23,520 bases of DNA from Myxococcales bacterium (GTDB lineage Bacteria; Desulfobacterota; Binatia; HRBIN30), in assembly GCA_037445065.1 (NCBI GenBank), contig JBBILD010000032.1:1-23520 (forward strand), given 5' to 3'. Both the position numbers and the translations under genes were made by a program. The notes below the pieces were generated by a model. It searched no databases and was not told the origin of the DNA. It was given only the letters and a program-made list of their open reading frames with translations. The stretch's first letter is position 1, and each line of letters starts with the position of its first letter. This document shows positions 1-23,520 of this stretch, piece by piece.

Positions 1-12
1 TCCCTCACCTCC
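1..12 (-). promoter_or_regulatory. Probable Shine-Dalgarno site for the next (out-of-window) gene, embedded in the kinase 3' end
   Basis: Minus strand reads GGAGGTGAGGGA at 12..1, a near-perfect anti-SD match. Confidence 0.5.
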
Positions 13-3000
13 CAGCGGCTCCAAAACCAAGCGCTGCACAGGACCTTCCTTGCCCTCCGCGATGCGGGTGCTGATCTTGTACACGATGTCTTCCCGCATC
101 GGATTCCACGCGTACAGGCACGACTCGTCTTCGCGGCGCAGGCGCTGCACAAAAATGGCGAGCTGGGCGAAGGTCTCGTCGCTCGACACGTCCCCCAGTT
201 GGTACCCGTCGGCCAGTTCGAGCAAATGGTGGAACAAATCGGCGCCCAAGCGCAGGCGTTCCTGGCGGCCGTCCCGGTAGCGGTAGACCAAGAACAGTTC
301 TCTGTGGAACTGATCCATCCCCTCAGCTTCGAGGAGTGGCACTTCCAGCGAGAATGAATCCAGGGGTTTCTCCACCCAAAAGACCGTTTCGGTCGGCGTG
401 CGCGGCATGACGCGCAGCGGCACCACACCGGGGCGGCTCGAGGCAATGACCGGAAGGTCTTCCAATTGCGACACGCCGCGGCACACACGATCGCGCAAGG
501 CGCGTCTTTTGGCTTCGTCGGTTTCGAGCGGGAACTGCACGAAACTCTGCAAGTATGCGCCGTTGGCAAGCTGCAGGGCAGCGGGCGATTCCCCGATCTG
601 CGCAAAGTTCGCTGCGGTCCACTCGAAGTACGCCTGCCTGCGCGCCGAGGCCAGCGCACTGGGGTCTTGCACCGCCGAGGATCCCCACTCGGGATCGGGG
701 GTCAAGTAGCGGTCCAGGCGCGGGCTCGCCTCGAGCGCTGGGTCGAAGCGCACGAGTTCGCGCAGGACCTCGCCCTGCCGGCCAGGAGCATCCGCTGCGA
801 AGGCCCGATCCCAATACGGGCGGGCCCCGAACGGTCGCCCTTCGTGGTACTCATCGCAGTAGTGAATGCCGAACAAGATGTACACCAGCGCCGCGCGCAG
901 CTCGCGCATGGTAATGTGCGTCTCGCCGCGCACGTGCACGGCTTGCAGGGCGGCGAACAAGCGCTGCCGCGCCCAAGCGCGCGCCTCTTCCCCGCGCTCC
1001 TCCGGAACCCCGGTTGGTCCGAAAAGCCGGGTCGCGCGGAACACTTCGCATGCTGTTTTGGCCGAGCACTGCCCGCACGGCGCCCAAATCTCGCCGGCGT
1101 GCTCGCCACCGTACAGGCGGTCGAGCAACCGCTCGAGGAAGCTCGTGTCGATGCGGCCTTCGCTCGCCAGTACGTTGCCAACCAAGGAGCGGGCGTTGAG
1201 GTTGATGAAGGACAGGGGAACGTCGCCGTTGGCCTCCTCTCCCTGCAAGCGTGCGCGCAAGCTCGTGGTGAGCGGAGTCGGTCCTTGCTGGTCTTCGAAC
1301 TGCTCGATCCACTCGAGCAAGCGGCCGTCATTGATGGCGAGCAAGTGCACGCGGTCGTCCGTCGGCGGGCCGCTTTGGAATGGGGCCAGGAAGTCATGCA
1401 GCAATTCGTCCGAAGAGTGTCCTTGCCAAGCGGCGGAGCCGTCGAGGTTGATGCGAACCAAGCGGCCGCTCAGCAACCTGCCTTCGAACATCCGCTGCGA
1501 GGAGAGATGCCGCCCCACCCCGATGCGTTCCGCCAAGTGTTGCAGCAGGGCGGTTTTGCCGTCACCAGCGTTGCCGCAGAGAATGACCAGGCAAGGCGGG
1601 CCGCCTTCCACCTGCTCGCTCAGCGTTCGTTCGAGGCGAGTCTCGACGAAGGTGGCTGCGGCAAAGTCGGAGTCCAGTCCCCGGGTTTCCTGGTTGCCCC
1701 AGCGTGACCCGGGGTAGGATTGCAACAAGAGTTCGAGCCACTCGATCCGCTGCGGCGAGAGCGTGCCCCGGGTCGCGACCACAAATGGGCCCGGCGCCTC
1801 GGCGGCCAGGGGTGGAGCCGCTGCCAACGCCGAGTCCTCGCTGGTTTCGGCCAGTAACGACAGTGCTTCCGAGAGGCTGCCGATCCGTTTTGCGGGGTCC
1901 GGATCGGTCGCCTTGTCGAGAAAGGGAGCGAGGCCAGACCATTCGTCCCGAGCGATTTCTCCCCAATTGAGGCCGCGCTCTTTGTGTTCGCCGTCCTGAT
2001 AGGCGAACGGAGGGCGCTCGAAAAGAACGTGGAAAAACGACGCTGCGAGCGCGTAGTAGTCGTCAGCGGGGTACGCCGGCAGACCCTTGACCCGGGAGGG
2101 AGAGCAGTACAGGAGCGTGCCAGGAAGCTTGGCCGCCTCGCCCGCGCGCGAGACCGAGTCGTAGTCCGTGAGCACCAGGGAGGAACCAGCGACGATCAAG
2201 TTTTTCGGGCTCACGTCGCCGTGTACCAAGCCGGCTCGGTGCAGTTCATCGAGTGCCTCGCACACCTCGCGCAACCAGCGGCGCGCGAGGGCCGCGGGCG
2301 ACTCGCCGAGGTCCTCGGCCAGGAGAGGGAACACGCCTGTGAATTCGCCCAGGGGTGAGCCCTCGATCCACTTGAGCAAGGCGACGAAGGCGTTTTCTCG
2401 CCACTCCGGCGCCACCTCGAAAATCGTTGCCAGAGCTCGCTGAGCGCCCAAGTGGGGGCGGGCCAGGCGGTAGGCGCGCAACAGCGCTGGGCCCAGCTCA
2501 GGCTGACCCACGACCTTGCCCACGTAGGTCCCCAGCTCTTCTCCAGAAGCGTCCACCTCCACCACTTTGAAGGTGGTGCCGACGCCACCGCTGCCGAGGC
2601 GCGCGACGATACGGTAGCTCCGCTGATGGAAGCGGACGATCTGATCCTCGCACCAGAACCGGGCAGGCGGCACTTCGGGTTCGTGCCCCTCGCCTGCCAA
2701 GGCAGCGAATTCCCGCTCCAATTGCTCAGCGGACGGCCGGGCGGTCGGGTCCTCTTGCTCTCCTCGGTCGAGAATCTCCTCGGCTCGACGGGCGATGTCT
2801 TCCGTCTCGTTCCGGAACAAAAGGCGCAGAGCACTGCACAGCGAGTACACGTCGGATGCCGGTGTGGCGGCGGCAAGACCGTTTGCGCGCACTTCCGGCG
2901 CTGCCGTGCCGATGCAGGCAGCGGGCAGCGGCGTGTCCGCAGCGATGGTGTCCTCGGCCGGCACGCGTGCCAAGTGAAACCCGGTGAACACCGGTCTGTC

Positions 3001-3990
3001 GTCGTGGCGCACCAGAATCGTGCGCGCAGTCAGGCAGCGGTGCAGCGGCTGGCCCCGCTCGCCGTGCAGTTCGCGCAGCGCCGCAAAGGCGGCATGCGCG
3101 AAGGCAATGCGGCCAGCGGTGCTCCAGTGGGGGTCGGCAGCGCGTTCTTCCAGCGCCGGAGCGGACGGATCCAGCACGGTAAAAAAGAACATCTCGCCGA
3201 TGTACCCTGGCACTGGCTGGAAGGAGTCGAGGATGCGCGGAGCCCAAGAGTACTGCTGCAAGCGCTGCAGAGCCTCGAATTCTCTGCGCGCTTTCTCTTC
3301 TGCTCTCCGGCTCGGGTCGGCGGAAAGGTCGTACAAGTGGAGGAGCGCGCGATCGCGGCGGCGCTGGTGCAGGCCTTTGTAAACGCGGTGGAAGCGCTCT
3401 TCGGACGGTGTTTGTCGTTCGAGATTGACGTAGCCGGCGACGGTCCGGATATCGCCATCCAACGACGCCTTCGCACGCGGTTCTATGAGCCGGGCCAGGC
3501 GCTCGACGTCGTCGCGACCCAAAACACTTTGCGCGTGGAAGGCAAGCGCGTCCTGCCAGTCCGAGAGGTGAAAGAAGCGCACCCCGCGCTTCTCTCTGCC
3601 GCGAAGTCCCTCCACCCGAGCCTTCTCCTGCGTGAGCAGAAAGACCGGATCCACGCGCGGGAGTCGGGGACAGTGTCTGCGCAGCGTGGTGGCAACTTTG
3701 CGGGTCTTGCCAACGAGGCGATCGGCCTCCTGGTCGACTTCCCTGCGGTGGTCTCCGACCCAAGCGGCCGTCCAATGCTTGATTTCGATCACCGCTACCC
3801 CGGGTGGCCCGATGCACAACAAGTCGATCTCGTCGGGCTGCCGCTCCTCGTTCAAGGCAAAAGCCAAGTTGGCAAGGAGGATCCACTTGTCCGTTCCCGG
3901 GCTCGAACGAAGGCGTTCGCAGATGCGCTTGAACGCTTCGCGCTCGCTTTCGTTTGCGGCCGGTGCACAGGGAACGAAGGCAACTTCCAT
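1..3990 (-). CDS. NERD nuclease + tandem (pseudo)kinase/Ser-Thr kinase + P-loop ATPase multidomain protein, MAD6-like; 3' end lies beyond the left window edge
   Basis: Manual translation from ATG at 3990 (MEVAFVPCAPAANESE...) is open to position 1, so it is absent from the ORF track; an in-frame stop lies upstream at 4030-4032. Motifs: NERD DEIDLLCIGPPGVAVIEIKHW (~3772-3834); degenerate kinase LHRCLTARTILV / TGFHLAR / AAPE / SDVYSL (~2830-3050); intact kinase LGSGGVGTTFKV, YVGK, HGDVSPKN (~2200-2223), DYD; Walker A LVILCGNAGDGKT (~1552-1590); PCGQCSAKTAC (~1048-1080). Confidence 0.9.
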   Translation of the reverse strand, partial: MEVAFVPCAPAANESEREAFKRICERLRSSPGTDKWILLANLAFALNEERQPDEIDLLCIGPPGVAVIEIKHWTAAWVGDHRREVDQEADRLVGKTRKVATTLRRHCPRLPRVDPVFLLTQEKARVEGLRGREKRGVRFFHLSDWQDALAFHAQSVLGRDDVERLARLIEPRAKASLDGDIRTVAGYVNLERQTPSEERFHRVYKGLHQRRRDRALLHLYDLSADPSRRAEEKARREFEALQRLQQYSWAPRILDSFQPVPGYIGEMFFFTVLDPSAPALEERAADPHWSTAGRIAFAHAAFAALRELHGERGQPLHRCLTARTILVRHDDRPVFTGFHLARVPAEDTIAADTPLPAACIGTAAPEVRANGLAAATPASDVYSLCSALRLLFRNETEDIARRAEEILDRGEQEDPTARPSAEQLEREFAALAGEGHEPEVPPARFWCEDQIVRFHQRSYRIVARLGSGGVGTTFKVVEVDASGEELGTYVGKVVGQPELGPALLRAYRLARPHLGAQRALATIFEVAPEWRENAFVALLKWIEGSPLGEFTGVFPLLAEDLGESPAALARRWLREVCEALDELHRAGLVHGDVSPKNLIVAGSSLVLTDYDSVSRAGEAAKLPGTLLYCSPSRVKGLPAYPADDYYALAASFFHVLFERPPFAYQDGEHKERGLNWGEIARDEWSGLAPFLDKATDPDPAKRIGSLSEALSLLAETSEDSALAAAPPLAAEAPGPFVVATRGTLSPQRIEWLELLLQSYPGSRWGNQETRGLDSDFAAATFVETRLERTLSEQVEGGPPCLVILCGNAGDGKTALLQHLAERIGVGRHLSSQRMFEGRLLSGRLVRINLDGSAAWQGHSSDELLHDFLAPFQSGPPTDDRVHLLAINDGRLLEWIEQFEDQQGPTPLTTSLRARLQGEEANGDVPLSFINLNARSLVGNVLASEGRIDTSFLERLLDRLYGGEHAGEIWAPCGQCSAKTACEVFRATRLFGPTGVPEERGEEARAWARQRLFAALQAVHVRGETHITMRELRAALVYILFGIHYCDEYHEGRPFGARPYWDRAFAADAPGRQGEVLRELVRFDPALEASPRLDRYLTPDPEWGSSAVQDPSALASARRQAYFEWTAANFAQIGESPAALQLANGAYLQSFVQFPLETDEAKRRALRDRVCRGVSQLEDLPVIASSRPGVVPLRVMPRTPTETVFWVEKPLDSFSLEVPLLEAEGMDQFHRELFLVYRYRDGRQERLRLGADLFHHLLELADGYQLGDVSSDETFAQLAIFVQRLRREDESCLYAWNPMREDIVYKISTRIAEGKEGPVQRLVLEPLGGEG

Positions 3991-4156
3991 ATAAGAACGT
4001 TGCTTCTTGTTCCGGGAAGGCCCGACTTGTCAAGAAAGAGCGGACGAACGCCATACGAACTGCGCCTGCAAGGCACTCGATTTGGGCGCGCTCTCGCTTG
4101 CATTCGGAGCACCTGCACCGTGGTTTCCTACGCACGAGCCGTCGGCCTCACGCGTT

Positions 4157-5217
4157 GCGGGGGCAGGTCTAGGGCCTGCCCACCCACCGGATACAAGTGC
4201 GAACCCGCAAATCCCACCACGGGCGGGCGCGACGGCCGCCCCTACATCGTCTCGCGCAATGCGCGCGAAATGGGCCGCCATGCACAACTGCTTCGGTGTT
4301 GGTGGTGCTGGGCGCGGCGTGCCAATCGGATCATCCGTTGCGCCTCGTCCCTGGCACAACCCCTACAGAGTTGCGCCAGGGACGGTGATGGGCCCCCTAT
4401 TCCTGGGCTTAACGCGCAGCGCCAAGCCCAGGTGGTATTGGCCAACGCTTTCGGCGTCGCGTGGTGGTGGGAACAACATTCGAGTAGAGCGGCGGTGTGG
4501 GCGGTGGAACCGCGCTGCCCCGAGGGTAGCGGGTTTCGGGTACCGCGCGTGCAGGATCGGAACGGCGTGCCGACGACACCACGGGCGACCACAAGGGTGC
4601 CCCTACAATTTCTGATAGCGGCAGCCTGCACGTGTCGCGGCAGCGGGCGGCTGGGCCGCGGACGGCCGGTGCGATACCCGGCGGGGCCGTGCGTGCCGGC
4701 GCGTTTCCAAAGCACCAGCAAGACGGTGTAGGGGCAGGCCTTGTGCCTGCCCGTTGACTCGATCCGTCGCGGATGCCCACGTGGATCCGTGAGGTTGCGT
4801 CGTGCCCCGGATCGCGGTGGATATCCCAACATCACTGGTCGTGAGGTGGGTGTCCTCGAAACACCACCGCGTGCACGATCGGAATTGCGTGCCGCGGGAA
4901 GCACGGGCAGCCACAAGGGCCGCCCCTACAAGTCTGACGTGGCAGCCTGCATGTGTCGCAGCACCGCGGCGTCTGGACCGTGGGCGACCACAAGGGTCGC
5001 CCCCACACCCGCAGGGGGCAGGGATGCCAGCGTGATGGCACGCCGCCACCGAGACCGTGTAGGGGCAGGTCTTTTGCCTGCCCGTGCCTCGATCCGCCGC
5101 CGATGCGCACGTGGACCGGTGGGGCGGCGTCGGGGCCGGGATCACGCTGTGTGTCCGAAGATCACGTGGGAACGCCATCCCGGCGGCAACACGGGCGACC
5201 ACAAGGGTCGCCCCGTC
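4157..5217. repeat. GTAG-type REP palindrome cluster 1 (BIME/REPIN-like) with a degenerate ~322-bp tandem unit
   Basis: Forward type GTAGGGGCAGGnCTTnTGCCTGCCC at 4728-4752 and 5059-5083, degenerate at 4157-4181. Reverse type GGGCGACCACAAGGGTCGCCCCTAC-like at 4221-4245, 4583-4606, 4905-4929, 4982-5006 and 5193-5217. Flanks also repeat (cgcgtgcanGATCGGAAnngcgtgccg at 4546 and 4868). Confidence 0.85.
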
Positions 5218-5273
5218 AGATCCTGAATGCGGCGCTGTGGCGGCTGTGGCACCGGATCCCGCCCACCATTCCT

Positions 5274-5322
5274 GCATTCGCGCTTCTCGATTCCCCATTC
5301 GCCATTCGCAACTCAGCATTCG
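5274..5322 (+). repeat. Degenerate heptamer tandem repeat (consensus CCATTCG, 7 units)
   Basis: gcattcg cgcttct cgattcc ccattcg ccattcg caactca gcattcg. Confidence 0.7.
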
Positions 5323-5424
5323 CCGCGGCGCATTTCTCGCTGGCGCGGGCACTCACGCAACGTCGCCCCAACAGGGCCCCGGTACAGCTTGGCGAAGAGC
5401 GAAAAGACGGGTAGACAGGAACGG

Positions 5425-5925
5425 ATGCTGCGGTTCGCGGCAATCGACTTCGAGACCGCCAATCGCGATCGAAACAGCGCTTGCGCTGTGGGTCTGGCGG
5501 TGGTTTCCGGAAGGCGCGTGGTCGAGCGATTCTACCACCTGATCCGCCCACCAACGCGCAAATTCGAGTTCACGTTCTTGCACGGAATCGGTTGGCAGCA
5601 CGTACGCGAGGCCCCCACGTTTGCGCAGCTTTGGCCGGAACTCAAGCGCAGGCTGCGGGCGGTGGACTTTATTGCTGCGCACAACGCGGGCTTCGATCGC
5701 GGCGTCCTCGACAGTTGCTGCACCACCTACGGGTTCGCGCCGCTTCGCCTGCCGTTCGTCTGCACGGTGCAGCTCGCTCGCACCGTGTGGGGGATCTACC
5801 CGACTCGGCTTCCCGACGTCTGCCAGAGGCTCTCGATCCCTCTTCAGCACCACCACGCTGCTTCCGATGCGGAGGCGTGCGCGCGCATCGTCGTCGCCGC
5901 GAGAGCAGCTGGGTGGCGGTGGTAG
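5425..5925 (+). CDS. DEDDh 3'-5' exonuclease (DNA polymerase III epsilon-like, standalone)
   Basis: MLRFAAIDFETAN (ExoI), AAHNAGFD (ExoII), HHAASDA (ExoIII); AGGA upstream of ATG 5425. Confidence 0.92.
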   Translation: MLRFAAIDFETANRDRNSACAVGLAVVSGRRVVERFYHLIRPPTRKFEFTFLHGIGWQHVREAPTFAQLWPELKRRLRAVDFIAAHNAGFDRGVLDSCCTTYGFAPLRLPFVCTVQLARTVWGIYPTRLPDVCQRLSIPLQHHHAASDAEACARIVVAARAAGWRW

Positions 5926-18096: not shown

Positions 18097-18737
18097 CCCG
18101 CGCGTGCTTGCTGGCCACGGCACTAGCCAGCGTCGCGGCGTCGGTCGCTCGAGCCAGCGAGCCGGCCCGAATGGAGGAGGTCGTCGCGGTGTGCCTGGTC
18201 CCGCCCGCGGCCGAGCCGGTGGGCGAAGTGCGGCTCGTGCGGCGCGGGGAGGAAGAAGTCGTGCAGACTCTGCTCGACACCGTGCCCATGCGGCGAGTGG
18301 TGGCGGAGATCCGCGCAAAAGAGGAACGCAATTGGCCAGTCGGTGCCGCCGGCAGCGAGGAAGCGCGCCGTTACGTCACTGCCTTGCAGGAACTCCAGCA
18401 AACGTTGTGGAAGCGCGCCGCCGAGGCGGCACAGGGAAGCCCGCCAGCGCAGCACCTGCTCATCGAATTCCGCCTGAGCCGCACGCGCGCCTCGGTGGCA
18501 CTCGGTGAGTTTTCCGCCGAGGGCGGGATCGGCCAGCGCCGCCGCGTGGAGCCGCAAGCGCACGCTGAACTGGCCTTGGATCGCGGCTACATCGCCCGCA
18601 ACATGCGGCTGATTCTCGAAGACGCGTGCCAGGCGGCGCCCGAAACACTCGCCGCGTGGTTACGCCAGTTTCCCAACCTCGCCAATTCTGCAGAGTCGGG
18701 CAGGAGCGGCGCAGGACCCGCACAGGATCCGCGTTGA
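18093..18737 (+). CDS. Hypothetical secreted protein
   Basis: ATGA overlap with the MMPL stop, GGAGG upstream, signal-peptide-like N-terminus (MTRACLLATALASVAASVARA). Confidence 0.7.
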   Translation: MTRACLLATALASVAASVARASEPARMEEVVAVCLVPPAAEPVGEVRLVRRGEEEVVQTLLDTVPMRRVVAEIRAKEERNWPVGAAGSEEARRYVTALQELQQTLWKRAAEAAQGSPPAQHLLIEFRLSRTRASVALGEFSAEGGIGQRRRVEPQAHAELALDRGYIARNMRLILEDACQAAPETLAAWLRQFPNLANSAESGRSGAGPAQDPR

Positions 18738-18804
18738 CAACCCCGCGCGATTTTCCGAGAGAAGCGGCTCACCGCCCCGCGGCGGGTATCGAGAGGAGAT
18801 GCGG

Positions 18805-20778
18805 ATGAAGTCTCGCACGCTTTGCGCTTTGCAACTCGGCTTGGCGGTTTTGCTTTCCGCTGTGTTCGGCTGTGGGACGGACGGCGAGGGCGACGCGGCG
18901 GGTTCCCTTCCAGCGGGACCGCCGCCGGCGTGCAACCCACTGGCGAGCGAGCACGATTGCCTTGCGCCGTTCCCTTCCAACGTGTTTCTCGTGCGCGACC
19001 CCGCCACCCACAGCGGCGCGCGCGTCGAGATCCCCGAAAGTGCCCTGCCCAAAGACATTTTCGGACGACCCTTCGACGTCTCCCGCGTGCACGCTGCCGA
19101 TGGCTTCGCCATCGGTACGCAGATCTTCGCGGTGCTGGGCGAGGCGGTAGATCCTTCCAACCTCGCTACCTACGACCCCGAGCGCCCAGAACTGCTCGAA
19201 CGTTCGCTGGCGCCCACCAGCCCCACCCTGCTCATCGATACCGTCACCCGCCAGCGCGTCTTCCACCTTGCCGAACCCGACCCGCGCGCCGACTCCCCTC
19301 GCCGCCAAGCCTTGCTCCTTCGCCCGCTGGTACGCCTCACTCCGGGCCGGCGCTATGTGGTGGCCCTGCGCGGGTTACGAAACGCAAGCGGGACAACGAT
19401 TCCCGCACCGGCAGGCTTTCGCCAGCTTCGCGATCGCGCGGTGACCGATGCGCAGCTCCTTCCCCTCAGCGAGCGCTACGAGCGCGAGGTCTTTCCCGTA
19501 CTGGCGCAACTCGGAGTCGAACGCGCCGAGTTGCAACTCGCCTGGGACTTCACCGTGCGCAGCGAGGAGGACGCCACTGCCGACCTGCTCGCCATCCGCA
19601 ACGACGCGCTCGAGCGCTGGCGGCGCAACCCGCCTGCGGTTCGGGTCACCAAGGTAGGGCCGTCCGAGCGACCCGAAATCGCGCGCCGCATCGAGGGCAC
19701 GATCGAGGTGCCCTTGTACTTGGAAAGCGCCCGCCCTTCCGCCCGCATCCACCGCGACCCTGCCACCGGCAGGCCGGCTGCCAATGGGATGACCAAGTTT
19801 TCCTTCCTCGCCTTGATCCCGCACTCAGTCCTGCAAGGGAGCGAGCCAGCGCGCTTGCTGCAGTTCGGTCACGGCTTCTTCGGCTCGGTGGGCGAGATGG
19901 AAGGAGGCTACTTGCCCCAGTTCCTGCAAGACTTCGGCTGGGTGGGAATCGGCACCGAGTGGTGGGGGATGTCGCAAGGCGATTTGACCGCAGTGGCGGC
20001 CGATCTGTTGAACGACCCCAGTCTCGCGATTCGCTTCACCGACCGCGTGCACCAAGCCATGGTCAACTTCATGGCCCTCGGCATCGCCCGCTCCCAACTG
20101 GCACGTGAAGCCGCCTTCCAAGCGGACGGCCGGCCTCTCTTCGACCCGTCACGGCTCTACTTCATCGGGCTCAGCCAAGGGCACCTTCTCGGCACCACCT
20201 ATGTGGCGCTGGCCCCGGACGTCGAGCGCGCGGTGCTGGCCGTGGGCGGGGCGGACTTCACCTTCATCATGTTCCGCTCGCGCGCCTTCGGCCTATTTCT
20301 CGGCATCATCTCCGGCATGTTTCCCGACCCGCTCGACCAGCAAAAAATGACCATGCTGCTGCAGTCGGTGTTCGATCGCATCGATCCCCTCACGTATTCC
20401 GCCCATATCGTGCGCGACCCCTACCCGCCGGCACGAGCCAAGCAGGTCCTCCTCCAGATGGCCACGGGCGACGCCGAGGTGCCGAATCTGGCCACCGAGT
20501 TTCACGCCCGCGCCATGGGCATTCCGCTCGCCGTGCCCGCTCCGGTACGCGTGCCTCAGCTCGCCACCGCTCCGTACCCCGTCAACGGCTCCGCACTTGC
20601 CGTGTACGGCTATTCCATAAACCCCTTCCCGGGGGTGCTGGCGATTCCGCCTACGGACCCCAACGAGGCGCACGAAGGGCAGCGCGAGCTGCGCGCCGCG
20701 CAACGGCAAGTAGACCGCTTCCTGCGCCCCGACGGCCGCATCGAGTCGTTCTGCGAGGGCGTGTGCGACCCGGAATGA
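18805..20778 (+). CDS. Lipoprotein with C-terminal alpha/beta-hydrolase (extracellular lipase/esterase-like) domain
   Basis: GAGGAG then ATG 18805; lipobox VFG-C; PFPSN and DGF N-terminal motifs; FGHGFFG, nucleophile elbow GLSQG, GDAEVPN, NEAHE. Confidence 0.85.
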   Translation: MKSRTLCALQLGLAVLLSAVFGCGTDGEGDAAGSLPAGPPPACNPLASEHDCLAPFPSNVFLVRDPATHSGARVEIPESALPKDIFGRPFDVSRVHAADGFAIGTQIFAVLGEAVDPSNLATYDPERPELLERSLAPTSPTLLIDTVTRQRVFHLAEPDPRADSPRRQALLLRPLVRLTPGRRYVVALRGLRNASGTTIPAPAGFRQLRDRAVTDAQLLPLSERYEREVFPVLAQLGVERAELQLAWDFTVRSEEDATADLLAIRNDALERWRRNPPAVRVTKVGPSERPEIARRIEGTIEVPLYLESARPSARIHRDPATGRPAANGMTKFSFLALIPHSVLQGSEPARLLQFGHGFFGSVGEMEGGYLPQFLQDFGWVGIGTEWWGMSQGDLTAVAADLLNDPSLAIRFTDRVHQAMVNFMALGIARSQLAREAAFQADGRPLFDPSRLYFIGLSQGHLLGTTYVALAPDVERAVLAVGGADFTFIMFRSRAFGLFLGIISGMFPDPLDQQKMTMLLQSVFDRIDPLTYSAHIVRDPYPPARAKQVLLQMATGDAEVPNLATEFHARAMGIPLAVPAPVRVPQLATAPYPVNGSALAVYGYSINPFPGVLAIPPTDPNEAHEGQRELRAAQRQVDRFLRPDGRIESFCEGVCDPE

Positions 20779-20958: not shown

Positions 20959-23520
20959 CTATTTCGCGCCACCGGTGCGGTCGGGTCCTCCCGACGCACC
21001 AGCGATCACCTTTGGCGTTGCAGCGCCGGCAGGTGCATCGCTTTGTCGGGCCGTTTCCTCGATCCGCATATTGCCCGAGAGCCCGAGGTCATCGAGGATC
21101 AGGCGCAGATCCGATGTGAGGCTCCTTGCTAGGTCGCGCTCGACCGTGACGGAGAAGTTGACGCTCACCTGAAGATCGGACCCCGCCCGCAGTTTGGGGA
21201 GTAACTTGGTCCCCAGCCGATTCCAGAGTTCCGGTGGAACCACACCCGTAATGCGGATGGTTTTGGTCTGAAGGCCCGGTGAGGCGGCCGGGGCAAGGCT
21301 GGGTTCGGAGCTGGGCCCAGGGCGCGGCAGCGTGGGATCCATGTGCGGCACCTCCACCGACCCTTCAGGCGCCAGCGGCTCGGGTCCGGGAGCAGGCACC
21401 GCGATACCAGCCTTCAGCGCTTGCGCCTTCACTTTGCTCAACAGAAACACTCCTGAGTCAAAGGCGACCTCGTCGCTGGTCACGCGCTCCTGGAACCAAA
21501 CCCGCTCATAGGTCCCATCTGATTTCTGGCCAGATGCAAGGCCGAAGTCGCCCCTGGCGACGAACTCGACAATTTTTCCCCGTAGGCTCACGTCGGGGTC
21601 CAGCAAGCGCGTGAGCGAGCCGTTGAGGAAACTCTGTCGCAAGCTGGCGAGCGGCCATGCGCCCGATTCCTTCAATGCGGGCGGCCAGTTCCGGTCAATG
21701 TACCCTGCGCCCACGGAGTCGCTGAGAAGCGCCGCCGACTTAAGCGCAGAGATCACCCTGGCACAGAGGGTCTCACCACTGCTGGAGTGGCCGACCCCGA
21801 GGTCAATGACCTTGAGGCCATCGGCTTCTTGGCAGTCGGCGATGACGACAAACCGATAGCCGCCCCACACCTCTTCTCTTGCCGCTTCCTCGGCCTCGCG
21901 TACCTTCAACTGAAGGTCATCGCGGTCCGAGCGGTCGAAGTCGCCTCCTAGTGTGCCGTCGGCGACTTCCCGGGCAACCCGCTTCCAGGCCAGCCACAGC
22001 TCGACCTTTTCGCGCAGCTCCCGACCTGGCTTTCTCACACACCACACGAGCGCTCCCGGGTAGAGACGTGGGGACCTGCCGCGCTGCCTCGTCCACTCCC
22101 CGATTTGTTCACGCAGCCCGCCACCGTCCCTGCCTACCGCGGCTACGCCGCTGCCAGGGTTCCATTCCGCCTCCGGATCTACGATTACGAGCGTCAAGCG
22201 CGGCGAATCCGGCACTTCCGCACCGTCCCTGGGGAAGTATACGATGGGAGTGGTGGCGCCCCGGCGAAACTCCTCCCTCACCAGCTCGCGAATCGCCGGC
22301 TTGATCTCAGTCTCTTCGTCCAAAGAGGCGCGCCGGTCGCTTACGACCTTCTTCATCGTCGGTCGGTAATCGATCTTGAACCCGTCCGAGCCCACTTTGC
22401 GGATGAAGTACGCCTTGTCCTCCAGCGCAAAGGCGGCGTTATCCACGGAGGTCGTATCCACATCGGGCTCTCCGAGAGCGAATCGCAGCTCCGGCAAGTG
22501 TGCCACTTTCTCCGTTTGCCCACCGGAGGATTCGAAAAGGATTGCCGTTCCGACGCGGCGGTGAATGTCGCGGAGCGGCCCCTTCGTATCCGCGTCTAGC
22601 GCCTTGGCATGGGCCTGCTCCCCAGCAATGTCCGCATCAATGGCGGCCACCAGCCGGGATTCACCCAACTGACCGAGGATGATACTGCGGAATCCCAAGT
22701 CGTGGAGCGGCGCTGACCCGAGCGTGATCAAGGGTTCTCGGCGCGCGGTCATAAAGCCTTCTCGATAAGCCCAGGCGATCCACTGCGCCAGCATGGCCAA
22801 CGTGCCGCGCGTTTGCTGGTATTGGGGCAAGGCCTGCCACTTGCGCTGGAAGACAGAGAGCGTGGCCGGATGGAACGGATAGCACGCCTCGAAGCGGGCT
22901 CGGAGATACTCTCGCGCTCTAGCCTCTGTGGTCGCGGTGTCTACGGCTGTCCACTCCGGGGGAAGCTGCTTGCGCCGTTGGAAGCACCAGTCCGCGAAGG
23001 CCTTCGCCACGTTCGTCTTCACGCGCTCGCTCCCCAGGTCCTCGAAGAGCCGCCGCCGCACGACTTCGCTGATCTCTGTCTCGTCGTTGGCGATGAGGTC
23101 CTTGGCGACGCGCCGCACGACCTTGGTGATTTTGTCCTGCCACTGCAGGTCCCAGTCTGTCATCTCGACCTGACTGCGCGGCAGGCTGATGACCAGCGCG
23201 CCACGCGTCGTTCCGGTTGCGGCAACGGTCAAGTTCTGGATGAAGGCGTGAAACGACTCAGCCATGCCGCGATGCCGGTTGAGGAAATTGAGCACCTCGT
23301 CGAAGAGGAGGAGCACGGGGGCGCCTGCCGCTTTGAAGAGACGCGCGATGGCCTCGGTCCCGGGTGCCGTCGTCTTCGCGGTGCGCCCCAACGCTTCGAC
23401 CCCCTTGTCGCCAGCGAGCTGGCGAGCGATGTCAACCCACGGGGTCTCTCGGCCGTCCTGCGGATCCCACGCGTTGCCCACAAACACACCGACCCTGGCC
23501 TTGGGAACTGACGAGAGCCG
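20959..23520 (-). CDS. DUF499-family AAA+ ATPase (BREX-related), 5' end beyond the right window edge
   Basis: Frame stays open to 23520 (RLSSVPKARVGVFVGNAWD...). TPWVDIARQL, Walker B VLLLFDEV, EVVRRRLFE, YPFHP, YQQTRGTL motifs. Walker A is not in the window. Confidence 0.88.
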   Translation of the reverse strand, partial: RLSSVPKARVGVFVGNAWDPQDGRETPWVDIARQLAGDKGVEALGRTAKTTAPGTEAIARLFKAAGAPVLLLFDEVLNFLNRHRGMAESFHAFIQNLTVAATGTTRGALVISLPRSQVEMTDWDLQWQDKITKVVRRVAKDLIANDETEISEVVRRRLFEDLGSERVKTNVAKAFADWCFQRRKQLPPEWTAVDTATTEARAREYLRARFEACYPFHPATLSVFQRKWQALPQYQQTRGTLAMLAQWIAWAYREGFMTARREPLITLGSAPLHDLGFRSIILGQLGESRLVAAIDADIAGEQAHAKALDADTKGPLRDIHRRVGTAILFESSGGQTEKVAHLPELRFALGEPDVDTTSVDNAAFALEDKAYFIRKVGSDGFKIDYRPTMKKVVSDRRASLDEETEIKPAIRELVREEFRRGATTPIVYFPRDGAEVPDSPRLTLVIVDPEAEWNPGSGVAAVGRDGGGLREQIGEWTRQRGRSPRLYPGALVWCVRKPGRELREKVELWLAWKRVAREVADGTLGGDFDRSDRDDLQLKVREAEEAAREEVWGGYRFVVIADCQEADGLKVIDLGVGHSSSGETLCARVISALKSAALLSDSVGAGYIDRNWPPALKESGAWPLASLRQSFLNGSLTRLLDPDVSLRGKIVEFVARGDFGLASGQKSDGTYERVWFQERVTSDEVAFDSGVFLLSKVKAQALKAGIAVPAPGPEPLAPEGSVEVPHMDPTLPRPGPSSEPSLAPAASPGLQTKTIRITGVVPPELWNRLGTKLLPKLRAGSDLQVSVNFSVTVERDLARSLTSDLRLILDDLGLSGNMRIEETARQSDAPAGAATPKVIAGASGGPDRTGGAK

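Follow-up and report, generated by a model that had tools for sequence, protein, structure and literature searches.

Restriction systems of the canonical DndFGH, DptFGH and SspFGH types are phosphorothioate-dependent and consist of three genes in the order F-G-H. Canonical DndFGH nicks and translocates DNA (PMC11662687). A comparative genomic study (Nucleic Acids Research, 2024, PMC10853773) also describes stand-alone DndFGH systems, in which the DndF core is fused to a NERD domain, an inactive kinase and an active kinase. The same fusion is restated in a later article (Nucleic Acids Research, 2026, PMC12839542), according to which PglW shares the N-terminal block. In the 2024 study, the P-loop domain of DndF is placed in the P-loop kinase class, DndG is described as three winged helix-turn-helix (wHTH) domains, and DndH as having a nuclease and a HerA/FtsK ATPase. 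The N-terminus of DndH is said to contain an inactive SWI2/SNF2 part, a helix-turn-helix (HTH), target recognition domains (TRDs), an inactive DAM and beta-sandwiches.

The gene considered here, which we call F, lies at one end of a 23,520-nucleotide stretch (the window) that comprises bases 1-23520 of contig C32 (JBBILD010000032.1) in the genome of a Myxococcales bacterium (GCA_037445065.1; 3.79 Mb, 46 contigs, 97.7% complete). Most probably, F encodes the first subunit of an anti-phage restriction cassette of the DndFGH type, which stands alone and comprises three genes in the order F, gap, G, H. The kinase-fused DndF of stand-alone DndFGH is an already described type, so the copy reported here adds one more instance.

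F is a single open reading frame (ORF) on the minus strand that starts with an ATG at position 3990 and runs for 1330 codons without an in-frame stop, with its 3' end open. Because contig C32 ends at window base 1, the gene is truncated by the assembly and not by mutation. Comparison with the C-termini of homologues indicates that ~0-3 residues are missing. Of the 8000 candidates scored in a search of a protein collection with F, at least 1118 reached E<=0.001. The 120 homologues listed are 1324-1367 amino acids long and share 53-67% identity with F across phyla, at 98-100% query coverage. The consensus of 28 family members begins at the same methionine as F, and the third-position GC content of F (0.78) is like that of neighbouring real genes.

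The N-terminal half of F carries a nuclease-type domain and a tandem of kinase folds. Pfam models match at residues 21-88 (NERD, 5.4e-8) and 566-670 (Pkinase, 4.8e-14), with a weak second kinase match at 303-385, and a sequence search of the Protein Data Bank (PDB) with the whole of F returned kinases only. Residues 1-745 were modelled with AlphaFold2 (AF2) on the basis of 54 relatives, with a mean predicted local distance difference test (pLDDT) score of 89.4. In a Foldseek search of the PDB, the best matches of this model are TYK2 (4oli, E 1e-17, 595 columns) and JAK, both with a pseudokinase-kinase tandem, and a kinase-domain duplication of EGFR; single kinase domains come next. The modelled protein therefore has two kinase folds.

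In the NERD motif, D56 is present in 54/54 relatives, and E69 and K71 in 53/54. The first kinase fold has a Cys after H317-R318, where 35 of the 54 relatives have Asn and none has Asp at position 319; this fold is predicted to be dead, that is, a pseudokinase. In the second fold, G466/G468, K492, H590-G591-D592, N597 and D609 are invariant in all 54, as is characteristic of a predicted active-type Ser/Thr kinase. PADLOC models that match the N-terminal half are MkoA, PD-T4-6, mad6 and PglW (8.3e-14).

The last of these matches raises the question of whether F belongs to a BREX type 2 (Pgl) system as a counterpart of PglW. NERD, pseudokinase and kinase follow one another in the N-terminal block of PglW exactly as in F, a tripartite arrangement that is noted in PMC12839542, and the NCBIfam PglW model also matches F (3.5e-9). 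However, the score is 34.9 bits against a cut-off of 990, and the match is limited to F residues 8-332. The C-terminal half of PglW consists of a wHTH and an inactive STAND domain (PMC12839542), whereas F has a core of the DndF/SspF type in that position. The neighbours of F are G and H, not PglX/Y/Z, and PglZ (PF08665) was not found in the genome by a model that matched 2 control genomes. A PglW-like identity for F is hardly credible.

The C-terminal half of F matches the PADLOC models SspF (2.2e-17, residues 782-1042) and DndF (1.1e-5), and was modelled separately as residues 746-1330. Among 63 aligned relatives, the Walker A motif GNAGDGKT is invariant. The Walker B strand, whose position like those of the other strands was read from the AF2 model, ends in N887 in all 63, at a position where Asp is usual. 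N848 (62/63) and D850 (63/63) form an N848-x-D850 motif. Each Cys of a CxxCx5C cluster is present in 63/63 relatives, as are C1045 and H1049. The core has a lid of ~12 helices between residues 205 and 440 of the model, and the Cys cluster is likely a Zn-binding insert of this lid; a Zn-type Cys insert has been described for some DndF proteins (PMC10853773). The Walker A motif, the Asn at Walker B, the N848-x-D850 motif and the Cys cluster are all listed for DndF in PMC10853773, which agrees with a core of the DndF type.

An initial annotation of the window had proposed a giant intact minus-strand ORF with NERD, two kinase folds, a GNAGDGKT P-loop and a Cys cluster, with an architecture resembling that of MAD6 and a P-loop similar to that of DndF-like proteins. 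The stop-free frame, the Pfam, AF2 and Foldseek results and the 63/63 conservation of the P-loop and Cys residues bear this out, as do the NCBIfam MAD6 match and the PADLOC SspF and DndF matches. The same annotation inferred a coupled downstream gene from a Shine-Dalgarno-like sequence at the 3' end of F and pointed to possible MAD7- and MAD8/DndH-like genes to the left of the window, and both expectations agree with the results that follow.

Candidate G and H genes were recognized through a relative of F. A contig search of sequenced genomes found a single locus, L002, in which a homologue of F is directly followed by ORFs of 601 and 1690 amino acids. The 601-residue protein matches MAD7 (144 bits, cut-off 410) and the PADLOC mad7 model, and the 1690-residue protein matches DndH (2.3e-21), mad8 and HerA models. 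When the genome studied here was searched with these two proteins, both matched at the very start of contig C6. The G match, at C6:4-1521 (9.6e-162), is aligned from query residue 92, and the H match is at C6:1538-6478 (E 0); both are stop-free. G itself matches MAD7 (120.5 bits, 1e-34), the PADLOC mad7 model (1.2e-13) and SspG (3.7e-5). H, of 1649 amino acids, matches DndH models (1.3e-21), mad8 (8.9e-20) and HerA, and it matches the solved C-terminal domain of DptH (7es4, 1.1e-9). D1104, E1122 and K1124, which form a PD..ExK motif from which alone the nuclease fold of H is inferred, are present in 38/38 aligned H proteins, and the same is true of a Walker A motif (G1334-T1341) and of D1548-E1549.

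The end of F is arranged in a way that suggests a connection to G. The Shine-Dalgarno-like sequence GGAGGTGA lies within the last F codons, at window positions 12-5 on the minus strand. A contig from another sequencing run (X2), 90-95% alike, crosses window base 1 and adds two further sense codons and then a TGA that overlaps an ATG. This overlap stands 6 nucleotides after GGAGGTGA in the minus-strand reading. The position of GGAGGTGA is thus suited to serve the overlapping start of G, and supports translational coupling of F and G. At window positions 1-100, contigs of run X1 that are identical to the window also end, at positions 68-97, and in that run no identical sequence bridges the F-G gap. 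The recurrent assembly break at this junction perhaps results from strain variation there.

Taken together, the three genes show much of what PMC10853773 gives for kinase-fused DndF systems. F has a NERD domain, an inactive and then an active S/T/Y kinase, and a DndF core with its P-loop motifs. In the core itself, a canonical Walker A, an Asn at Walker B and an enlarged helical lid bearing a Zn-type Cys insert precede a C-terminal alpha+beta domain. A G gene comes next, and then an H gene in the range of ~1650-1700 amino acids, whose product has a C-terminal PD-(D/E)xK nuclease followed by a HerA/FtsK ATPase. The cassette is also unlinked to dndABCDE. We found no architectural difference from the systems as described in that source; F is without the N-terminal wHTH that is mentioned there for some examples. 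Canonical Dnd, Dpt and Ssp systems share the F-G-H order, the SspF/DndF-like P-loop, a G that is weakly similar to SspG, and an H whose C-terminus resembles DndH models and DptH 7es4. Unlike their F proteins, the one studied here has an extra ~750 residues that encompass NERD and the two kinase folds, and no modification genes are adjacent.

The linkage of the three genes is conserved. When metagenome contigs were scanned with the F family alignment, a relative was found to be encoded in 458 stretches, and 80 of these were kept. In 60 loci, the F match is complete at its end and 2.2 kb or more of sequence lies beyond it; 57 of these have a G match within 3 kb downstream of F, the exceptions being L056, L067 and L068. 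An H match that reaches the C-terminus is present in 33/33 loci with at least 7.5 kb downstream, although that in L068 is partial (residues 860-1647). F and G are separated by an insert of 0.85-2.3 kb in five loci (L058, L059, L060, L074 and L079). G is missing from L056, L067 and L068, and in L067 and L068 only the C-terminal part of H is matched. These inserts, and the losses of G or of part of H, may represent insertions into the cassette and its decay in relatives.

Within the class to which the host belongs, the F core is found in 7/201 genomes and 5/89 genera, counts that include the genome studied here. A first sample of relatives had the core in 5/61 genomes, in one of them as fragments. 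Because this distribution is patchy and identity exceeds 50% across phyla, the sequence data fit a mobile defence cassette. On predicted viral contigs from IMG/VR (L095-L098), distant F-like genes of 26-29% identity are followed by weak matches to G and H. These contigs may carry prophage- or element-borne DndFGH-like cassettes.

At least one copy of F has decayed, and the cassette described here could likewise be a decaying remnant without function. In a genome of the same family (G020:C15:205014-208738), F is split into at least 5 separate pieces and has an internal TGA, and some metagenomic loci are without G or have a shortened H, as noted for L056, L067 and L068. In the present genome, the start of G is unassembled. 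However, F and H are free of stops over 1330 and 1649 codons, every family-invariant residue is kept, and the third-position GC signal is strong (0.78-0.80). We regard decay of this copy as highly improbable.

Pfam gives weak matches of F to AAA_16 and NACHT, around residue ~800, and to nSTAND, all below cut-off. A PDB search by sequence with the last 580 residues found nothing below E 0.3, and no solved DndF-like chain turned up in it. Foldseek found no PDB match to the core at E<=1e-3, its best local matches being TsaE/YjeE. In a wide VIA-align search, the best neighbours of the core were the SIR2-STAND protein EfAvs5 (Z 9.1), and ORC/Cdc6 and TnsC (Z ~8), middling values overall (Z 7-9); Z 8-9 lies in the range that the tool calls common or reports for unrelated models. 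The C-terminal alpha+beta domain of F was barely probed by the Foldseek and VIA-align searches.

These neighbours would be expected if F were a self-contained STAND/Avs-like sensor, whose P-loop domain oligomerises on a phage protein and switches on NERD and the kinase in abortive infection, with G and H accessory or unrelated. The EfAvs5, ORC/Cdc6 and TnsC matches and the weak Pfam matches favour such a sensor. However, Z values of this size are commonplace, the Pfam matches are all below cut-off and no Foldseek match reached the threshold. Also, the presence of G after F in 57/60 loci and the overlap of F with the start of G argue for one machine. A sensor that acts on its own is very unlikely.

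Several points count against the DndFGH-type reading, beginning with the fact that the nearest solved folds of the F core, at those commonplace Z values of 8-9, are STAND/ORC/Cdc6/TnsC-type ATPases, not P-loop kinases. The DptF model TIGR03238 scores only 13.2 bits on F (cut-off 50, E 0.031) and covers the P-loop region only, which also distinguishes F from canonical DptF. The F-G junction is unassembled in this genome, leaving a gap of ~270 nucleotides, and the contiguity of F and G is deduced from the matching contig ends, the relatives and the 90-95%-alike contig of another run. The start of G (~91 codons) is absent from the assembly, so G can be called intact only provisionally, and G is recognized by hidden Markov model (HMM) matches (MAD7, mad7, SspG), its triple wHTH being a prediction. 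DndH models cover only the last ~350 residues of H; no Pfam, NCBIfam or PADLOC family model matched H residues 1 to ~1300. A literature search, to which most subscription journals were out of reach, found no experiment on a kinase-fused DndF.

The methylation-associated defence system MADS also has a comparable core. In MADS of Pseudomonas aeruginosa SMC4386, defence depends on each of mad6, mad7 and mad8, which form the mandatory core of the detection model, and the other parts include the methylase mad5, the specificity gene mad2 and MAD3/4 (10.1101/2023.03.30.534895). MAD7-MAD8 has been treated as a second ATPase-nuclease module that awaits study (PMC13662399). MADS and the F-G-H cassette share the succession of a protein with NERD and kinase domains, a MAD7-like protein and a HerA-type ATPase. 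The cassette might accordingly be a MADS variant, in which MAD6-, MAD7- and MAD8-like proteins work with a methylase/specificity module located elsewhere in the genome and perform methylation-dependent restriction. The NCBIfam MAD6 model matches F residues 9-478 (1.6e-44), the MAD7 match to G is also significant, and the PADLOC models mad6, mad7 and mad8, which stand for the core that the preprint makes mandatory, all give matches. There is also a weak, unlinked mad5-like methylase match on contig C9 (44.8 bits), and contig C32 carries an HmaC-like gene at its other end.

Several observations nevertheless speak against a MADS assignment. The equivalog cut-offs are all missed, with 152.5 bits against 460 for MAD6 and 120.5 against 410 for MAD7. 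F, at 1330 residues with a DndF/SspF core, is ~2 times as long as the 612-position MAD6 model, which appears too short to include such a core. H, at 1649 residues with a nuclease, is ~5 times as long as the 314-position mad8 model, which matches only its ATPase end. The mad5 model also matches 8/14 control genomes, and the mad3 model, with 87 ABC-type ATPase matches in this genome, matches 14/14, hence both are unspecific and the latter is useless as a test. MADS includes a methylase, a specificity subunit and an OLD-like MAD3/MAD4 module, whereas no mad1-5-like gene is present on either flank of the cassette. A MADS variant is thus a very unlikely explanation, and by these scores and lengths F is not a MADS member.

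The DndFGH-type cassette appears to lack a modification partner of any kind in its vicinity. Neither flank has an adjacent gene for a methylase, a specificity subunit or an OLD-like protein, and because methylase and specificity genes are missing on both sides, the cassette stands alone. Unlike in canonical Dnd and Ssp systems, DndC (TIGR03183) and SspD (PDLC02782) were not found in the 97.7%-complete genome, by models whose controls matched in 5 and 6 genomes, respectively. SspE was not found in the genome either. A search for SspC gave no match in the genome, but its control matched nowhere, so it says little; the same applies to the genome search with TIGR03238. To survey the relatives, 129 ORFs from 36 loci were scanned (7 of 136 picked ORFs were dropped, and the near-duplicates L057, L058 and L085 were excluded). 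A DNA methylase or type I restriction-modification gene is nearby in only 4/36 loci (L021, L030, L072 and L076), a frequency that also speaks against a MADS variant. The other neighbours are housekeeping or unrelated defence genes (DarT/Macro, GmrSD, KAP and Schlafen-type helicases). Judging by these neighbourhoods, a modification partner is not conserved beside F-G-H. The initial annotation had noted the absence of adjacent methylase and specificity genes and suggested a variant or stand-alone module. Of these alternatives, stand-alone organization stands, and a new variant does not, since the fusion is already in PMC10853773 and PMC12839542. The kinase gating that the annotation also suggested is hypothetical.

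What was directly observed is which domains are present, that every enzymatic domain has intact catalytic motifs, that the F-G-H linkage is tight and conserved, and that no DNA-modification gene is adjacent. A mode of action can be proposed by analogy with published DndFGH work. F, G and H would form one complex, in which G could bind or target DNA, and H could cut DNA with its PD-(D/E)xK nuclease and move along it with its HerA/FtsK ATPase. With its P-loop/lid and alpha+beta domain, F might detect a nucleotide or a protein of the invader. The NERD domain and the pseudokinase-kinase pair could act either as a switch, by autophosphorylation or phosphorylation of G or H, or, where restriction has been blocked, as back-up effectors that attack the DNA and proteins of the cell or the phage. 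Switch or back-up-effector roles for these parts have been proposed in PMC10853773 and PMC12839542. Self DNA would be spared through infection sensing or target recognition rather than by a linked modification enzyme.

A more specific possibility, which is tentative and on balance doubtful, is that the pseudokinase-kinase pair is a licensing switch. An infection cue received through the P-loop/lid and alpha+beta domain of F would lead to phosphorylation of F, G, H or a phage protein, and thereby release the nuclease-translocase H, such that self and non-self are distinguished without a DNA mark. If so, a restriction-type machine would be controlled like a eukaryotic pseudokinase-kinase receptor, with a JAK-like tandem. 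The F family is large, crosses phyla and conserves every catalytic residue. It poses the questions of how, with no modification enzyme linked to it, a restriction complex that has both a nuclease and a DNA motor leaves the chromosome of its own cell unharmed, and what role a nuclease and a kinase have on the sensor subunit. The copy reported here adds little to these questions: one more host lineage, clear housekeeping flanks, and a genome in which no phosphorothioate genes were found.

Table 1. Features of the probable F-G-H cassette and its upstream region. Coordinates refer to the window unless contig C6 is named, and residues to the F protein.
Feature	Coordinates	Strand	Evidence or remark
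F gene, probable kinase-fused DndF-type subunit	1..3990	-	1330 codons; contig end ~2 codons before stop
NERD (PD-(D/E)xK) nuclease domain, predicted, residues 1-170	3481..3990	-	Pfam NERD 5.4e-8, AF2 model, column counts
Predicted pseudokinase, residues ~185-440	2671..3438	-	HR-C here, HR-N in most relatives, Asp 0/54
Predicted active-type Ser/Thr kinase, residues ~450-720	1831..2643	-	Pfam Pkinase 4.8e-14, PDB kinases, invariant motifs
DndF/SspF-type P-loop module, large helical lid, residues ~750-1185	436..1743	-	PADLOC SspF/DndF, AF2 pLDDT 89.2
Walker A GNAGDGKT, residues 806-813	1552..1575	-	Invariant 63/63
Cys cluster C972-x2-C975-x5-C981	1048..1077	-	63/63 each
C-terminal alpha+beta domain, residues 1186-1330	1..435	-	AF2 strands and helices, model residues 444-581; no PDB match at E<=1e-3
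Shine-Dalgarno-like GGAGGTGA in last F codons	5..12	-	Stop overlapping ATG 6 nt onward in related contig
G gene (MAD7/SspG-like)	C6 bases 1-1542		Without ~91 N-terminal codons
H gene (DndH-like; PD..ExK nuclease + HerA/FtsK ATPase), 1649 aa	C6 1538-6487
Upstream intergenic region, REP-like repeats	3991..5226	.	Outside cassette

The predicted genes on both flanks of the cassette are housekeeping genes. Upstream of F is a 1.2-kb region of repetitive extragenic palindromic (REP)-like repeats, followed by a divergent, DnaQ-like DEDDh exonuclease gene at 5227-5925 on the plus strand, in keeping with the repeats and exonuclease that the first reading of the window had reported. The palindromes have the core GGGGCAGG..CCTGCCC, occur in both orientations, and lie in units of ~320-330 nucleotides that are repeated 3-4 times. 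The strict form of the palindrome has 34 copies genome-wide, of which 5 are in contig C32 and 3 in this region. A promoter and terminator scan of 3900-5300 found nothing, including no sigma-70-like promoter; a TTGACA hexamer is located ~36 nucleotides upstream of the F ATG, without a scored matching -10 box. The exonuclease also matches the PADLOC models DEDDh (CRISPR-associated type, 2.2e-26) and PDC-S48 (3.8e-25), and may be either a housekeeping or a defence-linked enzyme. Beyond it are acyl-CoA synthetase and 2-oxoacid:ferredoxin oxidoreductase genes and an MMPL transporter, and downstream of H on C6 are DUF420, DnaB and metabolic genes. In the metagenomic locus L088 (4622-9379), genes for an AMP-binding enzyme and a 2-oxoacid:ferredoxin oxidoreductase are just upstream of F; these gene types also flank F in the window, arranged differently.

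At the other end of the window, an 853-codon minus-strand frame (20959-23520) is left open by the right end of the contig. It matches the PADLOC model HmaC (AAA+ ATPase, 3.7e-58), and its DUF499_antiphage score of 62 bits is below the cut-off of 1200. From these matches, it is probably part of a second defence system, of Hma or BREX-related type, that is cut by this contig end. At 18613-20778 on the plus strand is a 721-codon frame that matches no Pfam, NCBIfam or PADLOC model and has a strong coding signal (third-position GC 0.80).

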